In this document: piece by piece, positions 6,820 through 37,512 of the stretch
Layout: each line of letters starts with the position of its first letter
How positions within the stretch are numbered: position 1 is the stretch's first letter
NCBI GenBank assembly: GCA_016185565.1
Contig: JACPNH010000049.1
Coordinates: forward strand, 1-42,139
Direction: 5' to 3'
DNA from: Candidatus Woesearchaeota archaeon
GTDB taxonomy: Archaea > Nanobdellota > Nanobdellia > SCGC-AAA011-G17 > JAGVZF01
Length of the DNA: 42,139 nucleotides
Made by a program: the position numbers and the translations under genes
Notes under the pieces: generated by a model
The model's input: only the letters and a program-made list of their open reading frames with translations
What the model was told of the DNA's origin: nothing
The model's database searches: none

Positions 6820-8272
6820 ATGGATTTAAAAGAGATTAAAGAGGGCTTGACCTTTGATGATGTGTTATTAGTCCCTAAAAAAAGCCCTGTGGTATCAAGA
6901 AAAGAAATAAGCGTAGAAACAATGCTTACAGAAAAGATAAAACTAAACATACCTATAGTTTCTGCAAATATGGACACTGTAACAGAAGCAAACATGGCTA
7001 TAGCAATTGCAAGACAGGGCGGTATTGGAATTATCCACAGATTTTTACCAATAGAGAAGCAAGTAGAAGAAGTTTTAAAAGTAAAACGCTCTGAATCTTT
7101 TATTATAGAAGAGCCTGTAACAATAAACCAAAATAAAACACTGAAAGATGCCAAACTTCTAATGAACACTTATGATGTTGGTGGAATTATAGTTGTAGAT
7201 GACAACAACAATATTGCAGGTATTTTGACCACTCGAGACACTTTATTCCAAGAAAATTTAAGGTTAAAAGTAAGCGAGGTGATGACAAAAAAAGAAAGCC
7301 TTATCACAGCACCTTTTGGAATAACTATGGATGAGGCTAAAAAGGTATTAAGAGAAAATAGAATTGAGAAATTGCCCTTGCTTGATGGGGATGGAAAGCT
7401 CCGAGGATTAATTACAACTAAAGACATAACAAAAAAAGAAAAATACCCAAATGCAAGCAAAGATATTAAGGGAAGGCTTCTTGTAGGGGCTGCAATTGGT
7501 GTTAAAGACGATTATGTAGAAAGAGCAACTGCATTATTAAGAGTTGGTTGTGACGTTTTAGTTGTTGACATTGCTCATGGACATAGTGATACTGCAATAA
7601 AAGCAATAAAAGAAATCCGCAAGAACCTTGGAACAGTCCAAGTAATTGGAGGAAATGTAGCAACAGGCGAGGGAACTAAAGATTTGATTAAGGCTGGCGT
7701 GGATGCAGTCAAAGTAGGGGTGGGTCCCTGGTGCCGTCTGTTCAACTCGGATAGTCACAGGGGCAGGAGTTCCTCAATTAACGGCAATAATGGAATGTGC
7801 TAAAATTGCTAGTAAAGAAAATATTCCAATAATTGCTGATGGTGGTATAAGAAATTCTGGCGATATTACAAAGGCTTTAGCATCTGGAGCATCTTCAGTA
7901 ATGATTGGCAGCTTGCTTGCTGGAACAGAGGAAAGTCCTGGTGCAATAATAATGAGACAAGGAAAAAGATACAAGATTTATAGAGGAATGGCATCATTTG
8001 AAGCTAACTTAAAAAGAAAACAAAAACAAAATAATAACTTTGAAATTGACACTGATTTGTTAGACATGACACCAGAAGGCGTAGAGAGTTTGGTTGCTTA
8101 TAAGGGATACACATCGGAAGTCATTACACAATTAATGAATGGTTTGAAATCCGGAGTTTCATATTGTGGATCAAGAAACATTAAAGAACTGCAAAAAAAT
8201 GCAGAATTCATTAAGATGAGTTTAGCTGGGTTAAGAGAAAGTTTTCCACATGATGTTGATGTTCTTAAATGA
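6820..8272 (+). pseudogene. guaB: IMP dehydrogenase with CBS pair, interrupted by a 1-nt frameshift at about 7726-7729
   Basis: ORF 6820-7803 reads LTFDDVLLVP...SANMDTVTE...GIGIIHR...CBS...VVDIAHGHS...VKVGVGP and then goes out of frame. The frame of ORF 7790-8272 is open from 7718 and reads [27 protein letters not shown]...[11 protein letters not shown]...GSLLAG. Deleting one base in the ggtCCCTggt context restores VGVGPGAVCSTR, the catalytic Cys loop. Confidence 0.85.
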
Positions 8273-8300: not shown

Positions 8301-9335
8301 TTATGTCTTATAAATTTCCGTATCAGAATGAAAGGCATACCAAGCAAACCAAAATGCCTTAACAACTTGTAACTCTTGTAGTTTGTTATTACTACTATTG
8401 TCATTTAAGTCATATTCAATATCTCCAGATACCAATTTTCCATTTTTTAAAATAAATTCTTTATCATCGCGATAAAAAATCCTTGCATCGTCTATGCTTT
8501 CATCATAGACTATCAACAAATTCTTTCCATTGAAATTGTCGTTAATTATTTTTTCTCTTGCTATATCGCCCTTTAGATAAGCCTTGAATTTATTATTCAC
8601 TTCGATGCCATAAATTCTTGTCTTTGGGTGGTATGTTGAATCTCTAGTGCTTATTGGAAATAAAATTTCAGCACTTGATTCATAGGTTCCATATGGATAT
8701 GTATCATAATCTCTTACAAACCCCGTGTCCCTTGAAAGCACCTTTGAATTGGGGAAGCTTTTTTTCCAATCCTGCCATGAAGTTATTGTCAATGGCAGTA
8801 TCTCAAGTTTTTGTTCTGCTAATTCTCCAATAATTGCTGTGCCATCCAACTGGCTCCATAGAGTATTCGTGAGTCTGTCGTACATTACCAAATCAGAATT
8901 ATACAATTTTCCCGAAACTCCAAATGTTGTTTCTTGGCCATTAACAACCCTTTTGAAAACAATGCCACTTCCGCATAACGGGCAGAATGTGACTGCTACA
9001 GGCACATTTCCGATTTTATCATTTACAATCTCGTGCCAATTCAGGATTTGCTGTGGGTATGCGCGGGCATCTTTGTTGAATTCGACTCCAAAAACAACTT
9101 CATTGTCATCAAGAAATTTTTCTGCTTCTTGAACAGAAACAAATTTTGGCTTGTCTATGCTAGGGATCGCATCTCTCGGCAGCACATTTATTACATTTTC
9201 TAAAGGAACTATGTGCTTAAATCCATCTGTAACTATAATACTATTCTCTGATTTTAGATTTTCTTTATTTTTATTGGTATTGCAGCCAGAGATCAGCAAT
9301 ATTGCAAAAATCCCTAAAATAAATAAGATTCTCAT
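8301..9335 (-). CDS. DUF3179-family lipoprotein
   Basis: Signal peptide with lipobox LLISGC. Contains RDAIPSIDKPKF...ARAYPQQILNWHEIVND...VAVTFCPLCGSGIVF...FGVSGKLYNSDLVMYD...TLWSQ, the DUF3179 signature. Confidence 0.8.
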   Translation of the reverse strand: MRILFILGIFAILLISGCNTNKNKENLKSENSIIVTDGFKHIVPLENVINVLPRDAIPSIDKPKFVSVQEAEKFLDDNEVVFGVEFNKDARAYPQQILNWHEIVNDKIGNVPVAVTFCPLCGSGIVFKRVVNGQETTFGVSGKLYNSDLVMYDRLTNTLWSQLDGTAIIGELAEQKLEILPLTITSWQDWKKSFPNSKVLSRDTGFVRDYDTYPYGTYESSAEILFPISTRDSTYHPKTRIYGIEVNNKFKAYLKGDIAREKIINDNFNGKNLLIVYDESIDDARIFYRDDKEFILKNGKLVSGDIEYDLNDNSSNNKLQELQVVKAFWFAWYAFHSDTEIYKT

Positions 9336-9445
9336 ATTCTATACAACTTTATACAACTTAGCTCTGTTAATTTTAATTTTAAAATCTATAGTAAATAGAT
9401 GGTTGTGTGTTATTAAATCTTTACTTTAAATATTAAAAGAAAAAC

Positions 9446-9453
9446 TTTATATA
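9446..9453 (+). promoter_or_regulatory. TATA box (TTTATATA) for the regulator gene at 9503
   Basis: AAAAACTTTATATAG lies 50 nt upstream of the ATG, with an A-rich BRE-like flank. Confidence 0.45.
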
Positions 9454-9460
9454 GTTTAAC

Positions 9461-9479
9461 TTTTACAATATTTGTAAAA
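9461..9479. promoter_or_regulatory. Palindromic operator candidate TTTTACAA-TAT-TTGTAAAA
   Basis: Perfect 8-3-8 inverted repeat located 7 nt downstream of the TATA box and 24 nt upstream of the ATG at 9503. Its 17-nt core TTTACAATATTTGTAAA is identical to the sequence at 13789-13805. Confidence 0.55.
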
Positions 9480-9502
9480 CTTTAATATTTTAATATTTAA
9501 AA

Positions 9503-10141
9503 ATGAAACATATTGTTATTGCTTTAGTGAGCGATAATCTTGATCCTATCTTTCTAGGGCTAAAAGAGTTCCTTACAGAAAGAATTATACTTATAACCAG
9601 TTCTAAGGACTACAAGATTGCAGAAAAAGCAAAGGGGGAACTTGAGAAATTCAAGATTGACGTGCAGATTAGGGAAATAAATGATAACTTGTGGGAGAAT
9701 ATATTTAAGATAATATCACAGATAAAAAACCAAGAAGGTGGACCTGAAAAATTGATATTGAATGTTGCTTCTGGGAAGGACCCATTAAAATGCGCTGCTA
9801 TATCAGCAGCTTTCGTTAATGGAATAAAGGCTTTTGATGTCGATGAAAATAAGCCAATGCTGCTTCCTATTTTGAAATTCTCTTATTATAATATCTTGAC
9901 TGACAAAAAAATGAAAATACTGCAATTGCTTTCAGAACCAAATTGTTGCAAATCACTAGAGGAAATTAGCAACAAGACAAAGATGAGCCTTCCCTTAATT
10001 AGCTACCATATTAACGGCACAAAAAAATCAGAAGGTTTAAAGCAACTTGGATTGGTGGATAGAGAAGAAAAGGGCAGTAGGGTTGAAATAAAGTTGACAA
10101 CTCTAGGAAGATTACTGCTTAATGGGTATATATCAAGTTAA
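9503..10141 (+). CDS. Transcriptional regulator with an N-terminal Rossmann-like (CARF/Csa3-like) domain and a C-terminal ArsR-type winged helix
   Basis: The C-terminal part ILQLLSEPNCCKSLEEISNKTKMSLPLISYHINGT...LKQLGLVDREEKGSRVEIKLTTLGR is an ArsR/wHTH pattern. The N-terminal part HIVIALVS...RIILITSS...LILNVASGKDPLKCAAISAAF resembles the beta-strand/GxK pattern of Csa3-type ligand-binding domains. The N-terminal call is tentative. Confidence 0.55.
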   Translation: MKHIVIALVSDNLDPIFLGLKEFLTERIILITSSKDYKIAEKAKGELEKFKIDVQIREINDNLWENIFKIISQIKNQEGGPEKLILNVASGKDPLKCAAISAAFVNGIKAFDVDENKPMLLPILKFSYYNILTDKKMKILQLLSEPNCCKSLEEISNKTKMSLPLISYHINGTKKSEGLKQLGLVDREEKGSRVEIKLTTLGRLLLNGYISS

Positions 10142-10152
10142 ACTACACAAAG

Positions 10153-11115
10153 CTAACCTAGAGTTTTCTTTCTCCTCAAAAATCTGACTATTAGAATAAT
10201 TAAAACCAACAAAACAATAAATCCGATAATATTATACAAGAATAGATTTTTTGTCAAATTTCTTTGCAGGCTATAAAAGTATTCAGTAGTCTTTAAGAAA
10301 TCAAAGGCATTGATGATGTAAGTTCCTCTATACAATATCATTAATGCCCCTGCAGCAATTATTAATATGCCAGCAATAAGATTAGTTGAATGTACCCCAA
10401 AATTCCCAATCTTAAATTCTTTTCCACGTAATAGTTTCGAATTCGTAAAATTGTATTTATCCCAGAAAAATGAAAGCAAAAACAATGGCACAAAAACCCC
10501 TATGGAATACGCAAACATAAGCAATCCAGCTTTAATGTAGTTTCCAAGGACTGAGGCTATAGTCAATATTCCTGCTAAAATAGGGCCTGCACAAACATTC
10601 CACCCAAGCCCAAAAAATATTCCATACAAATAAATTCCAGAAACATCGTGCTTAAATTTTTTGTTTAGTTTTAAGAAACTAAAACCCTTCCCTAGTATAG
10701 TCAGCAATCCGAATAGAACCAAAAAAATTCCTGCTATCAAAGCTAAGTTTGAATTTTCATATTGAAATTGAGCTAGAGTATTTCCTAATTTTGCTGCTAT
10801 TAACCCAAGTAATACAAAAATGGTTGTAAATCCCAAAAAGAATATAAATGTCATCTTTGTTATTTCTTTTTTTTCTTTAAATGTATAAGAGAAAAATGCT
10901 GGTATTGAAACATAACTGCATGGGCTTAGTATAGCCAATAAGCCTGCTAGAAATGCTATTAAAAAACTTAAGCTCCCTAGAAATTGCTTGGCGCTTTCCT
11001 TTTCATACTGCTGGCCTGCTATTATTGCTGGTGGCAAATGAGAGCTAGCACCTACATAATTTATGAAACTCAGAAAAAATAAAATTGCAAGTAAATAAAT
11101 AAAAATTTTTCTCAT
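10153..11115 (-). CDS. ccdA: CcdA/DsbD-family thiol:disulfide electron-transfer membrane protein (copy 1)
   Basis: Polytopic membrane protein with LAILSPCSYVSIPAFF and GLGWNVCAGPILAGIL, the two conserved Cys-containing helices of the DsbD_2/CcdA family. Confidence 0.8.
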   Translation of the reverse strand: MRKIFIYLLAILFFLSFINYVGASSHLPPAIIAGQQYEKESAKQFLGSLSFLIAFLAGLLAILSPCSYVSIPAFFSYTFKEKKEITKMTFIFFLGFTTIFVLLGLIAAKLGNTLAQFQYENSNLALIAGIFLVLFGLLTILGKGFSFLKLNKKFKHDVSGIYLYGIFFGLGWNVCAGPILAGILTIASVLGNYIKAGLLMFAYSIGVFVPLFLLSFFWDKYNFTNSKLLRGKEFKIGNFGVHSTNLIAGILIIAAGALMILYRGTYIINAFDFLKTTEYFYSLQRNLTKNLFLYNIIGFIVLLVLIILIVRFLRRKKTLG

Positions 11116-11130
11116 ATTTTTTAGCAGAGG

Positions 11131-11529
11131 TTAGTTTACTACCACTTTGCCTTTCATATTGCTATGGCCTTCACCGCATGGAACTGTGCACACAAAATTG
11201 AATGTTCCTTTTTGGTCTGCCACAAATTCTACAGTAACAGTTTCCCCAGGATTAATTACTTTGTTTATGTTATAACCAGCAAGTCCAAATCCGTGGGTTA
11301 CATCGATGCTGTGCATCTTTAATATTACACTGTCACCTTCATTTACAGTAATTGTATCTGGAGTGTATTGCCATCTTTTTGCTTCTATGTTAAAAACCTT
11401 AGTTTCTCCTGTTGGCGGCAATGGCGGGGGGCCTATTTTATCTTTTTTTTGTGTATTTTGGGTTGTGTTACTACATGCTGCTATAAATAAAACTGATAAA
11501 ATAAAAAATGCAATAAAATATTTCTTCAT
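11131..11529 (-). CDS. Stand-alone CuA-type cupredoxin lipoprotein (cytochrome oxidase subunit II-like domain)
   Basis: Lipobox FIAAC. The ligand pattern H-x34-C-x3-C-x3-H-x2-M (THGF...FVCTVPCGEGHSNM) matches the binuclear CuA site in identity and spacing. Confidence 0.8.
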   Translation of the reverse strand: MKKYFIAFFILSVLFIAACSNTTQNTQKKDKIGPPPLPPTGETKVFNIEAKRWQYTPDTITVNEGDSVILKMHSIDVTHGFGLAGYNINKVINPGETVTVEFVADQKGTFNFVCTVPCGEGHSNMKGKVVVN

Positions 11530-11530
11530 T

Positions 11531-12757
11531 TTAAGTCACCTCCTGATTAGGTTGTTGATTTGATTCCAGTTTAGGCTCTACAACTTTATTGGTATTCAAG
11601 TCTTTGTAAGGAACTTGTAATATATCTAGGTTTCTGAATATATAATAATTATCAGTTTCTATGCTACCTACTTGCGACCATGCTTCTTTTAAGGAACTAT
11701 ACACATCTGCCTCATTACTCATGATGATTGTTGGGGCCTTTGTTATTTTATATTTTGTTATTAATGCTTGGCCCTCTGGGCTGCTTACATCAATGGTCTT
11801 TTCATTTGACAAAAACACTCCAAAATTTAACAATATGGGCTTGTGCAATGAAACATTATAGCAAATGTTGCAACTTTTATCCGTTATATAGGTTAATTCA
11901 ACTAAGCCTCTGACAGAATTGGTTAACAAATCTTTATATGGCGGAGGAGTTTGTCTTACAATATAGCTACTGTCACTTTCTATGCTCCCAAATTGTTTCC
12001 AGTTTGCGATTATCTGATTATCGATATAAGCATCTAAGTCGGAAGAAAATATCATAGTGGGAAGTTTAGTAATCTTATATTTTGTAATAAGTTCCTCAGC
12101 CTGGGTAAATTCTAGAGTTTTTTCATCTGTCATTATGACACCAGCCCTTACTAATTGAGTAATCAACGAGCTTATGTCTGAACAATCCTTACATCCGGAA
12201 TCCTTGATATGAACTAGGCTTACTTTTCCAACTTCTTTGTTTAATACGAGGTCATAATAAACTGGCCTTATATCTTCAAAAACTAAGGTGTCTTCTTTTT
12301 TTATTAGCCCCATCTCTCCTGTTTTGTCTATCTCTCCTGTAACTAAAACTGTAGGTAGTTTAGTAATTTCATTTTTAGAAATCAAGGCCTTTGCCTCAGG
12401 ATCAGAAAATTCAAGTGTTCTTTCGCTAGTAACATCAACATTATTGTCTTTTATTGAATCTATAACCTGATTGAGATTAAAGCAATCCTTGCAATTAGAA
12501 TTTCTCAATATGGTCAGGCTTATTAATGCAGGTTTGCTTTTTTCCTTTGCTTCTGCAAGAGCTTTGGTATAGGACTTTTGTACTCCAACTATGATTATAA
12601 CATTTATTAAAAGTATTATGGCCAAAACAACGCTTAAAATCAATTGGTAGTTTAATTTTGATTTTTTGATTTTTATATTTGGCTGTTGCAATGATTCTTG
12701 CACACCAATAGATTTTTCCTCTTTTTGTTTTTCTTCTGATTCTTCTGTGTTTTCCAT
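11531..12757 (-). CDS. Membrane-anchored protein with three tandem thioredoxin-fold CxxC modules
   Basis: One N-terminal TM helix followed by three units of about 100 aa. Each unit has a CxxC (CKDC, CKDC, CNIC), then ...E(R/K)T(L/I)(E/D)...(S/T)..E...LI(S/T)K(N/Y)(E/K)ITK(L/A)PT, which looks like a cis-Pro loop. Confidence 0.7.
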   Translation of the reverse strand: MENTEESEEKQKEEKSIGVQESLQQPNIKIKKSKLNYQLILSVVLAIILLINVIIIVGVQKSYTKALAEAKEKSKPALISLTILRNSNCKDCFNLNQVIDSIKDNNVDVTSERTLEFSDPEAKALISKNEITKLPTVLVTGEIDKTGEMGLIKKEDTLVFEDIRPVYYDLVLNKEVGKVSLVHIKDSGCKDCSDISSLITQLVRAGVIMTDEKTLEFTQAEELITKYKITKLPTMIFSSDLDAYIDNQIIANWKQFGSIESDSSYIVRQTPPPYKDLLTNSVRGLVELTYITDKSCNICYNVSLHKPILLNFGVFLSNEKTIDVSSPEGQALITKYKITKAPTIIMSNEADVYSSLKEAWSQVGSIETDNYYIFRNLDILQVPYKDLNTNKVVEPKLESNQQPNQEVT

Positions 12758-12850
12758 GAAATCACTCTTTATTTTTTAGTATAATTATTTTAAAAAATCC
12801 CCCTTCAATAAAAGAAAAGAAAAATTGGTGTTTATATATTTTACTAACAG

Positions 12851-13066
12851 CTAACAACCGCCAACCATCTGTGGTAAGTTATTTACATCGTTCAATTCTG
12901 TAGCAATTGAATTTCCTGTAGATACACTCGTTGATTTTGAGTTTGTGCCAAGACTTATTTTTCCTGCGCTCATATCTGTTTTCAATTGCACTAGCTGAAA
13001 TGCCTGCACTGCAGAAATAACTACTAGTATGGCTAACACAGCTATAACCACAATATTTTTATTCAT
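12851..13066 (-). CDS. Small membrane-anchored protein ending in LPQMVGGC
   Basis: A 71-aa protein with an N-terminal hydrophobic helix, a Ser/Thr-rich linker and an extreme C-terminus NDVNNLPQMVGGC. Both termini are paralogous to those of the upstream gene. Only 3 nt separate it from that gene. Confidence 0.6.
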   Translation of the reverse strand: MNKNIVVIAVLAILVVISAVQAFQLVQLKTDMSAGKISLGTNSKSTSVSTGNSIATELNDVNNLPQMVGGC

Positions 13067-13069
13067 TTT

Positions 13070-13774
13070 TTAACAACCTCCTACCATTTCAGGTAAATCT
13101 GCTGAATTAATATCGCCTACACTACTTTTTTGGCCTGATTTTAATTTTTGGATTAAAGCTCGATCATTCAAAACATCTGGGCTTAATTCAAGCCCATTTT
13201 GATTTGCTAATACTGCTTTTTCAACCATGTTCTTTGGGTAGTATATAGACTTCCATTTTGTTAATTCCCAAAGTATTTGCTCATCACTCATTTCAGGATG
13301 GTTTTTGACTAAATATTTTGCCAATCCTTTAAAACTTGCAGCATGACTGCAACCACATAAACTTCTTCCTTGAGAGTCAATTACAGCAGGTGCACTACAG
13401 CAGAATTCACAGCTGATTTTTGTTCCAATATTAATATATCTTGACTTTTCTTCTGAAGTTAAACTGCTATCTTGCACAACTCTATCTAAGGCGGCTAGTT
13501 TACTTAAACTTTTTACAGGATCGTCATAACTAATCCCCAATTCATTACCATAAACTTCAGGGGTTCCTTTTGGGATTAATTTATTAATTATCTCATTTAC
13601 ATCTGCATTAGCACTTAATTTTATTGAACTTGTTGCTGCTCCAGTTGTGAATAATTGATTTCCTGTTAAGGCAGAGATTTGTATTTGATTAAATATAATA
13701 ACAACTGCAACGATGCCAATAAAAACATATCCTGTGTACTCAGAAATTTTTTCTTTTTTATTAGTCGGTTCCAT
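13070..13774 (-). CDS. Membrane-anchored Cys-rich protein ending in LPEMVGGC
   Basis: N-terminal TM helix. The central domain reads ISCEFCCSAPAVIDSQGRSLCGCSHAASFKGLAKYL...MSDEQILWELTKW, which is loosely reminiscent of PCYCGC-motif proteins. The C-terminus is GDINSADLPEMVGGC. Confidence 0.65.
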   Translation of the reverse strand: MEPTNKKEKISEYTGYVFIGIVAVVIIFNQIQISALTGNQLFTTGAATSSIKLSANADVNEIINKLIPKGTPEVYGNELGISYDDPVKSLSKLAALDRVVQDSSLTSEEKSRYINIGTKISCEFCCSAPAVIDSQGRSLCGCSHAASFKGLAKYLVKNHPEMSDEQILWELTKWKSIYYPKNMVEKAVLANQNGLELSPDVLNDRALIQKLKSGQKSSVGDINSADLPEMVGGC

Positions 13775-13788
13775 TTAAACATCCATGC

Positions 13789-13805
13789 TTTACAATATTT
13801 GTAAA
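13789..13805. promoter_or_regulatory. Palindromic operator candidate TTTACAA-TAT-TTGTAAA
   Basis: Identical 17-mer to the one at 9462-9478. It lies 8 nt downstream (minus strand) of the TATA-like ATTTATATAC at 13814-13823 and 14 nt upstream of the ATG at 13774. Confidence 0.55.
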
Positions 13806-13997
13806 TCTTACCTGTATATAAATCTTTTCTTTAATCTTTAATTTGGCACTGACTTTTTAGTATCGATTTTTCGATTTAATTATTACTACCTAGTTAAATC
13901 GTTAATTATAAAAACTCATTATTAAAATAAACTTTAACATTTTAATAACATAATTCATAATTTGTATCAATACCAAAATAAAGTGTGGAGCGTAAAA

Positions 13998-14355: not shown

Positions 14356-14598
14356 ATGAAAAAGAGGTATCACATCTTTGTCTGCGGAAGATGCGGTTAT
14401 AGGGCTCATTCTAAAGTTACTTGCCCAACATGCCATATCCATCTTGAAGAGCAATGCCATAAATGCTTGAATGCTAAAGGAAATTGTATCTGCAGAATAC
14501 ATGGTCCTTTCAGGGCTGGAAAGCCGATAAAAATAGCCGTGTCAAAAAAATCAAAAGCCAGGTCAAGGAAGACAAGAAAGTCCAAGAAAAGAAGGTGA
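14356..14598 (+). CDS. Zinc-ribbon protein with a highly basic tail
   Basis: Contains CGRCG...CPTCH...CHKC...CIC, followed by the tail KKSKARSRKTRKSKKRR. Confidence 0.55.
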   Translation: MKKRYHIFVCGRCGYRAHSKVTCPTCHIHLEEQCHKCLNAKGNCICRIHGPFRAGKPIKIAVSKKSKARSRKTRKSKKRR

Positions 14599-26113: not shown

Positions 26114-26162
26114 AATATTTGTAATCCCTAATAATTAAACATAAAATATTTGTAATCCCTAA
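26114..26162. promoter_or_regulatory. Two copies of the 18-bp direct repeat AATATTTGTAATCCCTAA, 31 bp apart
   Basis: Exact copies at 26114-26131 and 26145-26162, just upstream of the promoter at 26180. The first 11 nt equal the right half of the 9461/13789 palindrome. Confidence 0.45.
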
Positions 26163-26179
26163 ACTTATGCATCTTAGGC

Positions 26180-26197
26180 AGAAACATTTTTATATTA
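26180..26197 (+). promoter_or_regulatory. Promoter module AGAAACATTTTTATATTA (copy 1)
   Basis: BRE-like AGAAAC plus a TATA box. The ATG at 26217 is 37 nt from the start of the module, which gives leaderless geometry. Confidence 0.5.
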
Positions 26198-26216
26198 GAA
26201 AAAAATAATAAAATAA

Positions 26217-26861
26217 ATGAAAAAAGAGTATAATCTCGTTTTAATGGTTTTATTTTTAGCTATTATAATTTTTATTGCGAGTTGTACAGAAGATTTAAAT
26301 CAAACACAAGAACAAGGATTATGTACAAATGATATTAAAACTTGTCCTGATGGATCTGAGGTCACAAGAATACTACCTCCAAATTGCGATTTTGAAGCTT
26401 GCCCTGCCATATCCGATGACAATCAAAATGGTATAAGTTGCACTCAGGATGCAAAGCAATGTCCTGACGGTTCCTATGTAAGCAGAATACCTCCAAATTG
26501 CGATTTTGCAAAATGTCCAGAGTCTATCAAAAATACTACTGACACCATTACTATAAGAGGTAAGCTGATATCATTAAAATGCAATTCTGATGAAAATTGT
26601 GCATTAATAGACGGAGAATTCCTTGATTCTTTTACAACTATGACATTATGTTGCGGGACTTGTGAAGATAATGATTATTACCTTGATAAATGGATTTCAG
26701 TAAATAAAGATTCTTATACAAAGGTTCTAGAAGAACTCAGAAATGAAAATTGTAAAGACATTCAAGGATGCCCTGGTTATTATTGCCCACAATATCTACC
26801 AGAGAATGCTACACATATAGCAAAATGTATCGACAATATATGTAATAAGGTTCCTAAATAA
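26217..26861 (+). CDS. Cys-rich secreted lipoprotein with an internal duplicated motif
   Basis: Lipobox FIASC. It has a duplicated unit, CTNDIKTCPDGSEVTRILPPNCDFEACP and CTQDAKQCPDGSYVSRIPPNCDFAKCP, followed by a further Cys-rich domain. Confidence 0.6.
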   Translation: MKKEYNLVLMVLFLAIIIFIASCTEDLNQTQEQGLCTNDIKTCPDGSEVTRILPPNCDFEACPAISDDNQNGISCTQDAKQCPDGSYVSRIPPNCDFAKCPESIKNTTDTITIRGKLISLKCNSDENCALIDGEFLDSFTTMTLCCGTCEDNDYYLDKWISVNKDSYTKVLEELRNENCKDIQGCPGYYCPQYLPENATHIAKCIDNICNKVPK

Positions 26862-26864
26862 GGA

Positions 26865-26972
26865 GTGTTAGGGCGCTGGTGCATTCCTTTACACAATACA
26901 TCGGCAAAAGAAAAGTTCTTATAAGTTTTTCTCGACAAAACTAATTTAGGATTGCACCAGCACTGGTGTTAG
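26865..26972. repeat. Palindromic hairpin-forming element of about 94 bp, MITE-like, flanked by the direct repeat GTGTTAG
   Basis: GCGCTGGTGCATTCC (26873-26887) pairs with GGATTGCACCAGCAC (26949-26963) at 13 of 15 positions. GTGTTAG occurs at 26865-26871 and at 26966-26972. The element is locally GC-rich in an AT-rich spacer. Confidence 0.35.
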
Positions 26973-27045
26973 AAACATTTTTATATTAATTAAATAAAAT
27001 TCTATTTAATGATAATCAATAAGTTCTGGAGCTTGCCATTTCTAG
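26967..27045 (+). repeat. Direct repeat copy A: promoter module plus decayed 5-prime end of the glycerate kinase gene
   Basis: It aligns with 27822-27901 at a constant offset of 855-856 nt. The first roughly 50 nt are nearly identical, including AGAAACATTTTTATATTA (26971-26988) and ATGATAAT (27009). Downstream similarity is decayed, and the remnant reads MIINKFWSLPFLGQKN then a stop. Confidence 0.6.
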
Positions 27046-27133
27046 GGCAGAAAAATTAATATTGGTGTTGTAAAAAATAGTTAATTTTATATATTTAAAC
27101 ATATTTATGTTTTTTAACGTACTAGGAGACAAA

Positions 27134-27376
27134 ATGGTAAGTATAACTTTATCAGTACCCAAAGAAGTAAAACAAAAAATGAAACGATTTCCAGAAATGA
27201 ATTGGTCTGGATTTATAAGAAAAGTAATAATAGAGAAAACTGAAGAACTAACATGGAAAGAAGGGATGTTAAAAAGATTTTATGAAGAAGAAAAATTAAC
27301 AGATTGGGCTGTCAAACTGCAACGCAGAGCAAGAAAAGGCAGATTTAATATTTTAAGAAAGAAAGGCCTAGTATAA
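27134..27376 (+). CDS. Ribbon-helix-helix antitoxin (VapB-like)
   Basis: An AGGAG lies 5 nt upstream of the ATG at 27134, which I prefer over the track start at 27107. VSITLSVPKEVKQKMKRFPEMNWSGFIRKVIIEK shows a beta-strand/helix/helix pattern. Its stop abuts the ATG of the PIN gene. Confidence 0.6.
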   Translation: MVSITLSVPKEVKQKMKRFPEMNWSGFIRKVIIEKTEELTWKEGMLKRFYEEEKLTDWAVKLQRRARKGRFNILRKKGLV

Positions 27377-27811
27377 ATGAAGATAGTTACAGATTCAAAT
27401 GTTCTGTTTACATTTTTTTGGAAAGATTCTGCATTCGATAAGATTTCTATAAAACAAGAGCTTGAATTATTTTCGCCCGAGCATGCATTAGAAGAAATAA
27501 ACAAGTACTCCGGTGAAATACAATTCAAGGCAGGATTGTCTAAGAATGAATTTAATAAATTAAAGAAAGAAATTAAGATATTAGTAGAATTTATTCCCAT
27601 ACAAAAATATCAACAATTCTTAAAAGAAGCTAAATTATTGGCAAAATATATTAGAGAAGATAAGCGACCAGAATTTCTAGAGGACCTAGATTTTATAGCT
27701 TTAGCCTTAAAATTAAAATGTCCGATCTGGTCAAATGATAAGTTATTAAAGGAACAGCCGCGTGTTAAGATATTAGATACGAAGGATATCATACTTATAA
27801 TGAAGGACTAA
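27377..27811 (+). CDS. vapC: PIN-domain toxin (VapC-like)
   Basis: Contains IVTDSNVL (Asp), SPEHALEEI (Glu), DLDFIALAL (Asp) and IWSNDKLL (Asp), the PIN acidic quartet in the correct order. Confidence 0.65.
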   Translation: MKIVTDSNVLFTFFWKDSAFDKISIKQELELFSPEHALEEINKYSGEIQFKAGLSKNEFNKLKKEIKILVEFIPIQKYQQFLKEAKLLAKYIREDKRPEFLEDLDFIALALKLKCPIWSNDKLLKEQPRVKILDTKDIILIMKD

Positions 27812-27821
27812 TTAATATTAA

Positions 27822-27901
27822 TGTTAGAAACATTTTTATATTAATAAAATAAAATTTTATCTAATGATAATAAAGAATTTCAAGCAATTAGCTATTTCTA
27901 G
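27822..27901 (+). repeat. Direct repeat copy B: functional promoter plus 5-prime end of the glycerate kinase gene
   Basis: See copy A. The promoter module lies at 27826-27843 and the ATG at 27864, 38 nt from the start of the module. Confidence 0.6.
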
Positions 27902-35031: not shown

Positions 35032-37512
35032 TTATTGGGCAAATACCCAGTACCCAACACCAGGCTCTAGTAAAGAAGTCATGACTACTTGTTCATAAAT
35101 TCCCTGAGCATTTAATTTCCAGATTTCTGTGATTGTTAAAGGATCCATATTATACAATTGTGCTATTGTCCGGGGCTCAAGACCCTCAATTGCAATCATG
35201 TTCCATCCTAGATTTAATGTTCTTGTAGGATTAGTTACATCTCCAGTAATTGTAGTTAAAACTCTATTTTTCATCACAAAGAAGTATGATGTTTTTGGAT
35301 CTATGGTTGATAAAGTGCTCTGTCTTCCTGGATCTGTATGATACACTTTCCATAAACCGCTAGCAGTTTCATATGAATAAATGCTTCTTAGATTATTCAA
35401 TATGATTGGTGGTAATGCTGAAATTAAATTGCTTGTTTGTGGAAGGGGCAATGACACTAAATTAACTCCGGGGTTTAACATTAAGGTATATTCACAGGTT
35501 GTGCTGCATACAGGCCTAGTAAAGCTTCTAGTTGGTGAGGTAATGCTTTGTAGGGGTTCGGTGATAGAAGCACTATACGTATAAGCACCTTGAGGCAAAT
35601 TTGTAAAGTTTACAAAATAACTTCCGATTTTATAACCCTTAACATATCCGTTATAAATATCATTTATTTGTTGCGTGGTTAAACTTTTTCCATATATTTT
35701 AAATTCGTCAAAGACAGCAACTGCATGTCTGCCGCCAGTACACTCAGGACAGTCTATCGAAACACTATTATCATGTCCTATGTAAATATTTGGATTAATT
35801 GCAGTCATCGTTCCTAGATAAGTGGTAAGACTAACTGGAATTCCGTCTATATATAATCCCAAATTGTTATTTCCATAAGTTACTGCAATGTGATGCCATG
35901 TTCCTGGATCAAATGGTATGGGTAGTGTATTCAAATCAGCTTGGACACCAACAGCTGTTAAAGAATTGGCAATGAGGGTGATAGCTAGGAAATCATTTGG
36001 AGTCTTCTGTATGCTTATTCCATTCATAAAAGTTGTTGTATCAAGCAGCACCCTTGTTCTGCTATCTCCTATCCAATTTTCCATTGGTTTTACCCAGAAC
36101 ATTATCGTGCCTTCATTAAGGTTAAAATTATTGGTTGAACTATAAGTAAATATGTCTCCCCCACCAAAGCCGTTATCATTATCAACAAATATTGCATCAT
36201 CAAAGTACCCAAATGGTGCTGATATTCCCAGTGAGTTTGAAGGGTCTTCACCGTCATCACATGTAGAGCCATATTTGAAATCACAACTTAATAGATTAGG
36301 CAATTTATAATTTACAGAATTAAAGCTTAATGTAAAGTCTATTAAGTTTTCTCCTGGTATTAAAGGATTTCTCTGCATTTTTATTGTAACATCTGCTGGC
36401 GGATTAGGAACATTTGCATTATCAGCTGGAGTAGGAGGTAAAAAGTCTATTGTAGTTGTTGGCGGAGAGCTTATTGTAAAGCTTCTTGTTTCTGAACTAA
36501 TCACTTGATTAGCTGTGTCAACAGCAGAGGCACTAAATGTATAAGAACCGATTGCAAGATTATTGAACTTTATATAATAACTTCCGAATTCTTTATTATG
36601 TAAATTGTTTATTTCTGTGCTTGATAGTTTTTTTGCATAAATTGTAAATTGATCAAAAACACCGTTTGCCTGAGCAGTGCCGCCATTATTCAGACCAATG
36701 TATATATCTTGATTAAATGCCTGTATCGATCCTGTATAAATAGTTGGACCAGCTACTAAAACTCCATCAATATAAAGCTCTATTACATTATTTCCAAGGC
36801 CGTCAGGGCCATAAGTTACAGCTATGCTATGAGCGTCTTGTGCAATAAAGGACGCTGCTGAAGTGCTGACACCTGTTGAAAGAGGCGATCCTGTTGCAAT
36901 AGAAGCAGTTATACTGCCAGAAGTTGTAGCAGTACCAGGAGATTTCAGTATGGAAATTCCATTTGGACCAAGTGTTGTTGTATCTATCAATCTTCTTGAT
37001 CTTGTATCTCCGACACCCCAATTTACCTGGGGTATTACCCAGAACATTATCGTGCCTTCATTAAGGTTTATGTTATTTATGCTAGGATAATATAAGAAGT
37101 CCGGGTCTGCTATAGTGTCACCATCTTCATCTTTATTGTCAACTAAAACCCCATTTCCAAATTTTCCTGTCGTGAATGTTGTAAAGGAAGAATCTCCTGG
37201 AATCTCGCCATCATCGCAAACATAGGTATTTTCAAAACTGCAACTAATTAATGTGGGAAGCTTGTAATCAACAGAATTAAAGTTTAATGTCATGTCATTC
37301 AAAGCTATTAGTGGAGTTAATTGCATTCTGATTTCTACATTAGGATTATTGATTATATCTCCATTATTCGGAGTTGGAGGAACAAAGTTTAGTGTGGATA
37401 AAGGGGCTCTAAAAAGCCTGCCAAAATTTACTGAATAGATAGAATAAATAATTATTATTAAAAGTAAAATGACTATTACTAAAGCCAAAACCTCTTTTTT
37501 CTTCAAACCCAT
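35032..37512 (-). CDS. Large secreted protein with two tandem LamG/concanavalin-like lectin modules
   Basis: N-terminal signal anchor. There is an internal duplication of about 315 aa (FVPPTPNNGD...NLNEGTIMFWV...LYIDG... twice). The pattern NEGTIMFWV...HIAVTY...LYIDG...FDEFKIY is typical of LamG-like jelly rolls. Confidence 0.6.
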   Translation of the reverse strand: MGLKKKEVLALVIVILLLIIIIYSIYSVNFGRLFRAPLSTLNFVPPTPNNGDIINNPNVEIRMQLTPLIALNDMTLNFNSVDYKLPTLISCSFENTYVCDDGEIPGDSSFTTFTTGKFGNGVLVDNKDEDGDTIADPDFLYYPSINNINLNEGTIMFWVIPQVNWGVGDTRSRRLIDTTTLGPNGISILKSPGTATTSGSITASIATGSPLSTGVSTSAASFIAQDAHSIAVTYGPDGLGNNVIELYIDGVLVAGPTIYTGSIQAFNQDIYIGLNNGGTAQANGVFDQFTIYAKKLSSTEINNLHNKEFGSYYIKFNNLAIGSYTFSASAVDTANQVISSETRSFTISSPPTTTIDFLPPTPADNANVPNPPADVTIKMQRNPLIPGENLIDFTLSFNSVNYKLPNLLSCDFKYGSTCDDGEDPSNSLGISAPFGYFDDAIFVDNDNGFGGGDIFTYSSTNNFNLNEGTIMFWVKPMENWIGDSRTRVLLDTTTFMNGISIQKTPNDFLAITLIANSLTAVGVQADLNTLPIPFDPGTWHHIAVTYGNNNLGLYIDGIPVSLTTYLGTMTAINPNIYIGHDNSVSIDCPECTGGRHAVAVFDEFKIYGKSLTTQQINDIYNGYVKGYKIGSYFVNFTNLPQGAYTYSASITEPLQSITSPTRSFTRPVCSTTCEYTLMLNPGVNLVSLPLPQTSNLISALPPIILNNLRSIYSYETASGLWKVYHTDPGRQSTLSTIDPKTSYFFVMKNRVLTTITGDVTNPTRTLNLGWNMIAIEGLEPRTIAQLYNMDPLTITEIWKLNAQGIYEQVVMTSLLEPGVGYWVFAQ

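Follow-up and report, generated by a model that had tools for sequence, protein, structure and literature searches.

Archaeal repressors such as MDR1, LrpA and Phr bind between the TATA box and the transcription start, and block the recruitment of RNA polymerase, not the binding of TBP and TFB. Dimers of the BlaI/MecI/CopY family recognise TACANNTGTA; TTACAACTGTAA forms part of the blaZ operator of Staphylococcus aureus, and control regions usually have two operators (PMC1935004; PMC7253601). The Haloferax protein HFX_2341 is reported to be a global repressor, present also where CRISPR-Cas is missing from the species (PMC11434293). Very little of the gene regulation of the uncultivated DPANN archaea has been described; a literature search on archaeal or DPANN BlaI systems found nothing relevant. 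Here, a stretch of 42,139 nucleotides from a Candidatus Woesearchaeota archaeon (contig JACPNH010000049.1, positions 1 to 42,139), called the window throughout, was analysed. The assembly with this contig includes the proteins MBI2671195 and MBI2671200, with locus tags HYX18_. The window contains exactly two copies of the 17-mer TTTACAATATTTGTAAA (exact match search over its whole length): one in the promoter of a gene encoding a Csa3/HFX_2341-like regulator, and the other in the promoter of a minus-strand operon for extracytoplasmic thiol chemistry. Judging from its sequence conservation, this palindrome is a genuine, evolutionarily conserved operator-like element, and the two 17-mers are probably operators for a winged-helix repressor of the BlaI/MecI/CopY family encoded outside the window.

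The palindrome at two promoters and in close relatives

The 17-mer is a 7-3-7 interrupted palindrome, with the arms TTTACAA and TTGTAAA and a centre, TAT, which is not self-complementary. A preliminary description of this locus had reported the same 17 bp at two places, linking the regulator and operon promoters, and exact matching confirmed both copies. Copy 1 (9462-9478) is in the promoter of the regulator gene, 8 nt past the TATA box TTTATATA (9446-9453, plus strand) and 24 nt before the ATG at 9503; an A-rich stretch resembling a transcription factor B recognition element (BRE) is directly 5' of this TATA box (9440-9445). Copy 2 (13789-13805) is in the promoter of the minus-strand operon, 9 nt past a TATA box TTTATATA (13815-13822, minus strand) and 14 nt before the ATG at 13774. 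Both TATA boxes were read from the sequence. The 8-bp TATA box and the 14-24 nt to the ATG are as first described, and the gap of 7-8 nt between TATA box and palindrome is corrected to 8-9 nt. In archaea the start of transcription is usually some 25 nt beyond the centre of the TATA box, and the starts predicted from this spacing, near 9473-9478 and 13790-13795, fall within the promoter-distal arm of each palindrome. At both promoters the palindrome would thus lie between the TATA box and the predicted start and cover the latter, in agreement with the classic archaeal repressor position already proposed for it. Both copies are on the plus strand in like orientation, and are therefore inverted relative to their respective genes. 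The identity between the copies ends exactly at the edges of the 17-mer, which argues against a duplicated promoter; promoter duplication as the source of the repeat was rejected on these unrelated flanks and on the inversion of the copies relative to the genes.

Two hundred dinucleotide-matched simulated windows were used as the null model. Some repeated 17-mer occurs in 61 of them, so the earlier argument that a second copy would be very unlikely by chance was too simple; a repeated 17-mer which is also a 7-3-7 palindrome is found in 0 of the 200. Palindromes of the 7-3-7 type are themselves common, with a mean of 6.6 per simulated window and 9 in the actual window. Scored with a weight matrix derived from sites of other genomes, copy 1 reaches 26.7 bits and copy 2 reaches 25.8 bits, with 9.5 bits for the next match in the window and 18.6 for the best shuffle; the matrix shows no further site at the Grx-TrxR-ResA-CcdA cluster or at the DUF3179 gene of the window. 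A scan for bacterial-type promoters was uninformative (19 matches versus 21.7 expected). It is conservation across genomes, and not the number of copies in the window, that decides for an operator.

The comparison covers about 170 related loci. The closest homologue of the regulator, in locus L081 (71% identity), carries TTTACAAAGATTGTAAA in the regulator promoter, with TATA box and spacing as in the window (8-9 nt to the 17-mer and 9-10 nt to the TTACA core); relative to the window site the arms are intact, the spacer is altered and the flanks have diverged. Loci L084, L086 and L087, which contain homologues of the first operon gene with 71-76% identity, all show the palindrome upstream of that gene, and there are extra copies at a ResA-like gene in L084 and at a lipoprotein gene in L086. 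L081 and L086 come from one sequencing run and jointly reproduce the gene order of the window; their contigs do not overlap, and presumably they belong to one organism. With a site at the regulator in L081 and at the operon in L086, a second genome probably preserves the claimed link between the two promoters. The palindrome is also kept in L084 and L087, whose syntenic position lacks the regulator, and in L076 the geometry of the core fits a divergent CcdA operon, not the regulator gene. Across genomes with 35-76% protein identity the arms are invariant, with no covariation, around a spacer that is free to vary. All four related genomes strictly keep the palindrome, and in them it has reached new promoters, which points to a factor of unchanged specificity acting in trans. 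L084 also shows, at 9310-9385, a direct repeat with two copies of GTATTTTTACACAAA and operator-like half-sites, upstream of the lipoprotein gene that precedes the operon.

It is extremely improbable that the repeat is no operator at all, and that it arose by chance in AT-rich DNA or forms a hairpin in the 5' leader RNAs. At this composition, 17-mers that recur and palindromes of the 7-3-7 type are each common, and the 17-mer can fold into a short hairpin; however, the two properties are never combined in the simulations, the distance from TATA box to palindrome is fixed, the arms do not covary but keep one sequence around a free spacer, and the predicted start is inside the palindrome, which speaks against a hairpin in the leader. 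The RNA hairpin was rejected as a candidate, with weak stems (-2.7 and -3.5 kcal/mol) and arms kept in sequence without covariation.

BlaI-type genes and the neighbouring regulator

Eighty metagenome loci centred on the first operon gene were fetched, and the core TTACA-N5-TGTAA is found upstream of orthologues of this gene in many DPANN archaea. The exact core is present at most 220 bp upstream in 12 of the 20 loci whose first operon gene is at least 49% identical, and it is often duplicated, with copies 45-80 bp apart. The fetched loci contain 37 non-redundant exact-core sites, for which TTACA/TGTAA itself was the search pattern, and the extended archaeal consensus is A-S-y-T-TTACA-N5-TGTAA-A-r-S-T; both window sites, built on the half-sites TACA and TGTA, read TTTACA...TGTAAA. 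In at least 15 promoters of diverse lineages, as in the window, 9-10 nt separate the core from a TTTATATA or TTTAAATA box, and a second promoter class shows a gap of 17-20 nt from the TATA box to the core.

In many core-bearing loci the divergent neighbour encodes a Penicillinase_R (PF03965) protein of 115-130 aa (E = 1e-14 to 1e-16), and in most related loci this BlaI gene is followed by a gene encoding an M48/M56 BlaR1-like membrane peptidase with HExxH. The BlaI homologue of L001 matches the BlaI and CopR chains 2g9w, 2k4b and 1sd4 of the PDB. Within 220 bp upstream, the exact core is present at 13 of 29 BlaI genes (16 of 29 with one mismatch allowed) versus 3 of 81 regulator orthologues (Fisher p = 8.7e-7). 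Loci L001 and L052 encode both BlaI and the regulator, and in both the palindrome is directly upstream of the BlaI gene, not of the regulator gene. Distant, bacterial-looking loci with homologues of the first operon gene show CTACTACAnnnTGTAGTAG adjoining a BlaI gene, and the TACA/TGTA spacer of these bacterial-like loci is 3 nt, as in CTACTACAATATGTAGTAG.

A BlaI-type repressor encoded elsewhere in the genome is, on balance, the binder that we favour for the two window sites. Several results weigh against it. Neither tblastn nor a profile from 95 homologues, run against six-frame open reading frames (ORFs), revealed a BlaI-like ORF in the 42 kb of the window or in the sequence fetched for L076, L081, L084, L086 and L087. 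None of the checkable BlaI homologues at NCBI, among 100 proteins found and with incomplete genomes, is in the accession range of the window genome or of the L087 genome; the nearest by accession belongs to another genome of the same batch. The spacer is 5 nt versus 2 nt in the characterised operators, and one BlaI subgroup (L094, L100-L102) has its half-sites in the opposite arrangement. The window shows no gene for a BlaR1/MecR1-type peptidase either, and in its lineage the usual place of the BlaI and BlaR1-like genes is occupied by a Grx-TrxR cluster.

The obvious local candidate for the binder, implied by the preliminary description, is the adjacent winged helix-turn-helix regulator (9503-10141), which would bind the palindrome and repress both its own gene and the convergent operon, perhaps having replaced a lost BlaI. 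No other DNA-binding protein is recognisable in the window, one palindrome is on its own promoter both here and in L081, its invariant cysteines would suit a redox switch, and the missing BlaI-like gene in the fetched DNA of the window lineage favours it. Eighty genome loci centred on the regulator were fetched as well. The regulator neighbours in these loci include Grx (26 loci), DUF3179 (25), ResA-like (25), CcdA (19) and TrxR (13) genes, so the family is tied genomically to thiol-redox genes in most of them. The palindrome does not follow the family: neither the 17-mer nor its 13-nt core occurs in the 80 regulator-centred loci, TACAANNNTTGTA being absent from all of them, and matches to the relaxed core TTACA-N5-TGTAA number five in 898 kb, as many as expected by chance, with three of the five at promoters of BlaI, CcdA or first operon genes. 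The three regulator promoters of 81 with the exact core are those of the window, L081 and L076, the last of which fits the divergent CcdA operon instead, and the motif expected at orthologous regulator loci is thus mostly absent. Conversely, the regulator is within 10 kb in 0 of the 80 loci centred on the first operon gene, though many of these carry the motif and in many loci palindromes adjoin BlaI genes, and L084 and L087 have the palindrome without a syntenic regulator. In 20 aligned regulator homologues (alignment A1) the helix-turn-helix (HTH) region hardly varies and no residue in it sets the window lineage apart, which makes a change of specificity in a single lineage unlikely. Binding of the palindrome by the adjacent regulator is for these reasons considered unlikely, and an attractive assignment of regulator to operator, probably a wrong one, is corrected.

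The regulator family shows instead a distinct conserved element of its own. Of 80 regulator promoters, 42 carry TTTAAT-N-ATTAAA with at most one mismatch, 5-8 nt ahead of the BRE and TATA box. Per kb, the element occurs 4.4 times in the 150-bp regions that precede regulator orthologues and 0.041 times in the rest of the loci, an enrichment of about 100-fold; it also precedes ResA-like genes that are convergent, in at least four loci (L010, L043, L073 and L078). The element is often accompanied by another ATTAAAC repeat 20 bp away. In the window, the one-mismatch copy TTTAAATATTAAA (9425-9437), 8 nt upstream of the TATA box, is the likely binding site of the regulator itself, and the regulator gene is more likely a target than a reader of the palindrome. 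All 20 aligned homologues share Cys97 and a vicinal pair, Cys148-Cys149, which opens the HTH at the position of the ArsR metal site; these cysteines and the thiol-redox neighbours in most of the 80 DPANN genomes suggest a thiol- or metal-sensing family. The widespread Csa3-like regulator of Woesearchaeota is thereby given its own candidate site, in a setting of thiol-redox genes.

Another lineage-specific factor may be considered as the binder, one candidate being a small Cys-rich protein of 80 aa with a basic tail (14356-14598). Its gene, between the Grx and TrxR genes, was seen only in L084-L090 and the window; the fetched DNA of this clade shows no BlaI-like gene. The protein is without a recognised DNA-binding domain, and such a factor would need to have evolved the exact half-site and spacing that are paired elsewhere with BlaI genes; we regard this as distinctly unlikely. 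As further observations on this protein, its tail, KKSKARSRKTRKSKKRR, is very basic, it has no family match, and its identity among L084-L090 and the window is 75-91%.

Under the favoured reading, a BlaI-type repressor acting in trans, we infer for this genome both the binder and its repressing action. A repressor dimer would bind TTACA-N5-TGTAA 9-10 nt past the TATA box and cover the predicted transcription start; this would leave room for TBP and TFB but block the recruitment of RNA polymerase. Most related lineages pair the repressor gene with that of a BlaR1-like membrane metalloprotease; by analogy, a signal from the envelope would cause the repressor to be inactivated and the operon derepressed. 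The conserved target would be an operon for extracytoplasmic thiol, and possibly copper, chemistry, whose products are a Cys-rich protein ending in MVGGC, a triple thioredoxin-like protein, a cupredoxin and CcdA. In the narrow lineage of the window the operator would also have been placed on the promoter of the Csa3/HFX_2341-like regulator, which may then be co-induced with the operon and probably acts through its own element at 9425-9437, giving a two-tier circuit. A bolder and rather unlikely proposal is a wiring in series, in which a BlaI/BlaR1-type switch controls a cysteine-bearing Csa3-like regulator through the 17-bp operator, in a two-tier circuit for envelope thiol or copper stress around the structurally novel MVGGC family; or, more radically, the Csa3-like regulator took over the BlaI operator after loss of the repressor, as a non-orthologous replacement.

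The proposed target operon and other genes of the window

The regulator gene (9503-10141, plus strand) encodes a protein of 212 aa that combines an N-terminal domain resembling Csa3/HFX_2341 (DUF6293) with a winged helix of the ArsR type; its domain matches in Pfam and NCBIfam are below the curated cut-offs, and PF19810 is on record for its homologues. The gene and the operon are convergent, and their ends are 12 nt apart as previously noted, the regulator stop being at 10141 and the stop of the CcdA-like gene at 10153. All operon genes are on the minus strand. The first (13070-13774) encodes a membrane-anchored, Cys-rich protein of 234 aa, with a CEFCC...CGCxH cluster and a C-terminal LPxMVGGC, both of them invariant across its family (alignment A2). 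This protein has no Pfam or NCBIfam match. Its predicted structure is confident (predicted local distance difference test, pLDDT, 84.6), and a fold search of the model against the PDB gave no significant match (best E = 0.8). The family is also found in bacterial-looking contigs, adjoining BlaI genes. The second gene (12851-13066), identified from its translation, encodes a membrane-anchored protein of 71 aa which ends in LPQMVGGC, and is kept beside the first in related loci; two adjacent membrane-anchored proteins thus both terminate in LP[EQ]MVGGC. Then follow a gene encoding a membrane-anchored protein with three thioredoxin-like repeats and a CxxC in each (11531-12757; Pfam thioredoxin families), syntenic in related loci, a gene encoding a cupredoxin-like lipoprotein (11131-11529; Pfam Cupredoxin_1, E = 2.5e-13) and, as the last operon gene, one encoding a CcdA/DsbD-type transmembrane thiol-electron transporter (10153-11115; Pfam DsbD_TM, E = 1.4e-14).

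On the other side of the operon promoter, a plus-strand cluster from 14091 contains genes encoding Grx, the small Cys-rich protein, TrxR, two ResA-like proteins and CcdA. A DUF3179 gene (8301-9335, minus strand; Pfam DUF3179, E = 2e-103) is divergent from the regulator gene and shares with it a common intergenic region, in which a tandem 10-bp repeat, two copies of TATACAACTT (9340-9359), is directly upstream of the DUF3179 start codon (9335, minus strand). The gene encoding IMPDH (guaB) is split in the window into two overlapping ORFs, 6820-7803 and 7790-8272; it is a single gene of 480 aa in L084 and bears an intein in L087, and the split is probably a frameshift, an assembly error or a pseudogene.

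The intergenic-rich region 26114-27850 shows short exact repeats, AGAAACATTTTTATATTA three times (26180, 26971 and 27826) and AATATTTGTAATCCCTAA and TACCTCCAAATTGCGATTTTG twice each, near a gene encoding a PIN-domain protein (27377-27811). A Laminin_G_3 gene encoding 826 aa (35032-37512) contains an exact 34-bp repeat (36090-36123 and 37035-37068), which probably reflects an internal domain duplication, and also TTTGTAAAGTTTACAAA (35600-35616), with half-sites in the opposite arrangement. In L094 and L100-L102 the DNA separating the BlaI gene from the operon has, in place of the usual palindrome, TTGTAAAGCTTTACA with this same opposite arrangement.

Comparison with described regulatory systems

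The locus provides a concrete operator whose consensus is defined and whose distance from the TATA box is fixed, together with a candidate pair of repressor and protease and an operon as its conserved target, and it points to a conserved, uncharacterised extracytoplasmic Cys-rich family as the primary output. It suggests that the bacterial BlaI/BlaR1 logic is reused, with an identical half-site and a longer spacer, on archaeal promoters. Like BlaI-BlaR1 and MecI-MecR1 of S. aureus and Bacillus licheniformis, the related loci show the gene of a dimeric PF03965 winged-helix repressor beside that of a membrane metalloprotease, and often two operators in the divergent intergenic region, one of them on the repressor's own promoter; the TTACA/TGTAA half-site of the archaeal element is identical to that of blaZ (TTACAACTGTAA) and of the blaP operators. 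The archaeal system differs in a spacer of 5 nt instead of 2, in promoters with TATA box and BRE where the operator is 9-10 nt after the TATA box, in a short protease of about 245 aa without the penicillin-binding sensor domain, and in a target which is an extracytoplasmic thiol/cupredoxin operon and not a beta-lactamase; moreover, the repressor gene is not in this window.

CopY/CopR, which act on the cop box (TACANNTGTA) in Firmicutes, belong to the same repressor family, with the core TACA/TGTA and typically two operators, and their regulon handles a thiol-reactive metal; the window operon includes a cupredoxin. The DPANN proteins examined, however, do not conserve the C-terminal CxC...CxC copper site and are paired with a protease, the spacer length differs, and the window operon contains no copper exporter. 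With MDR1, LrpA and Phr the window operator would share its place, downstream of the TATA box and overlapping the predicted start, whereas the protein families and the motifs differ. The window regulator, finally, shows the two-domain layout (CARF-like plus winged helix-turn-helix) of Csa3a, Csa3b and Haloferax HFX_2341; unlike in these, its matches are below the curated cut-offs, its neighbours are thiol-redox genes with no cas genes seen in the window, and its family is distinguished by the invariant vicinal Cys-Cys at the start of the HTH and by the element TTTAAT-N-ATTAAA.

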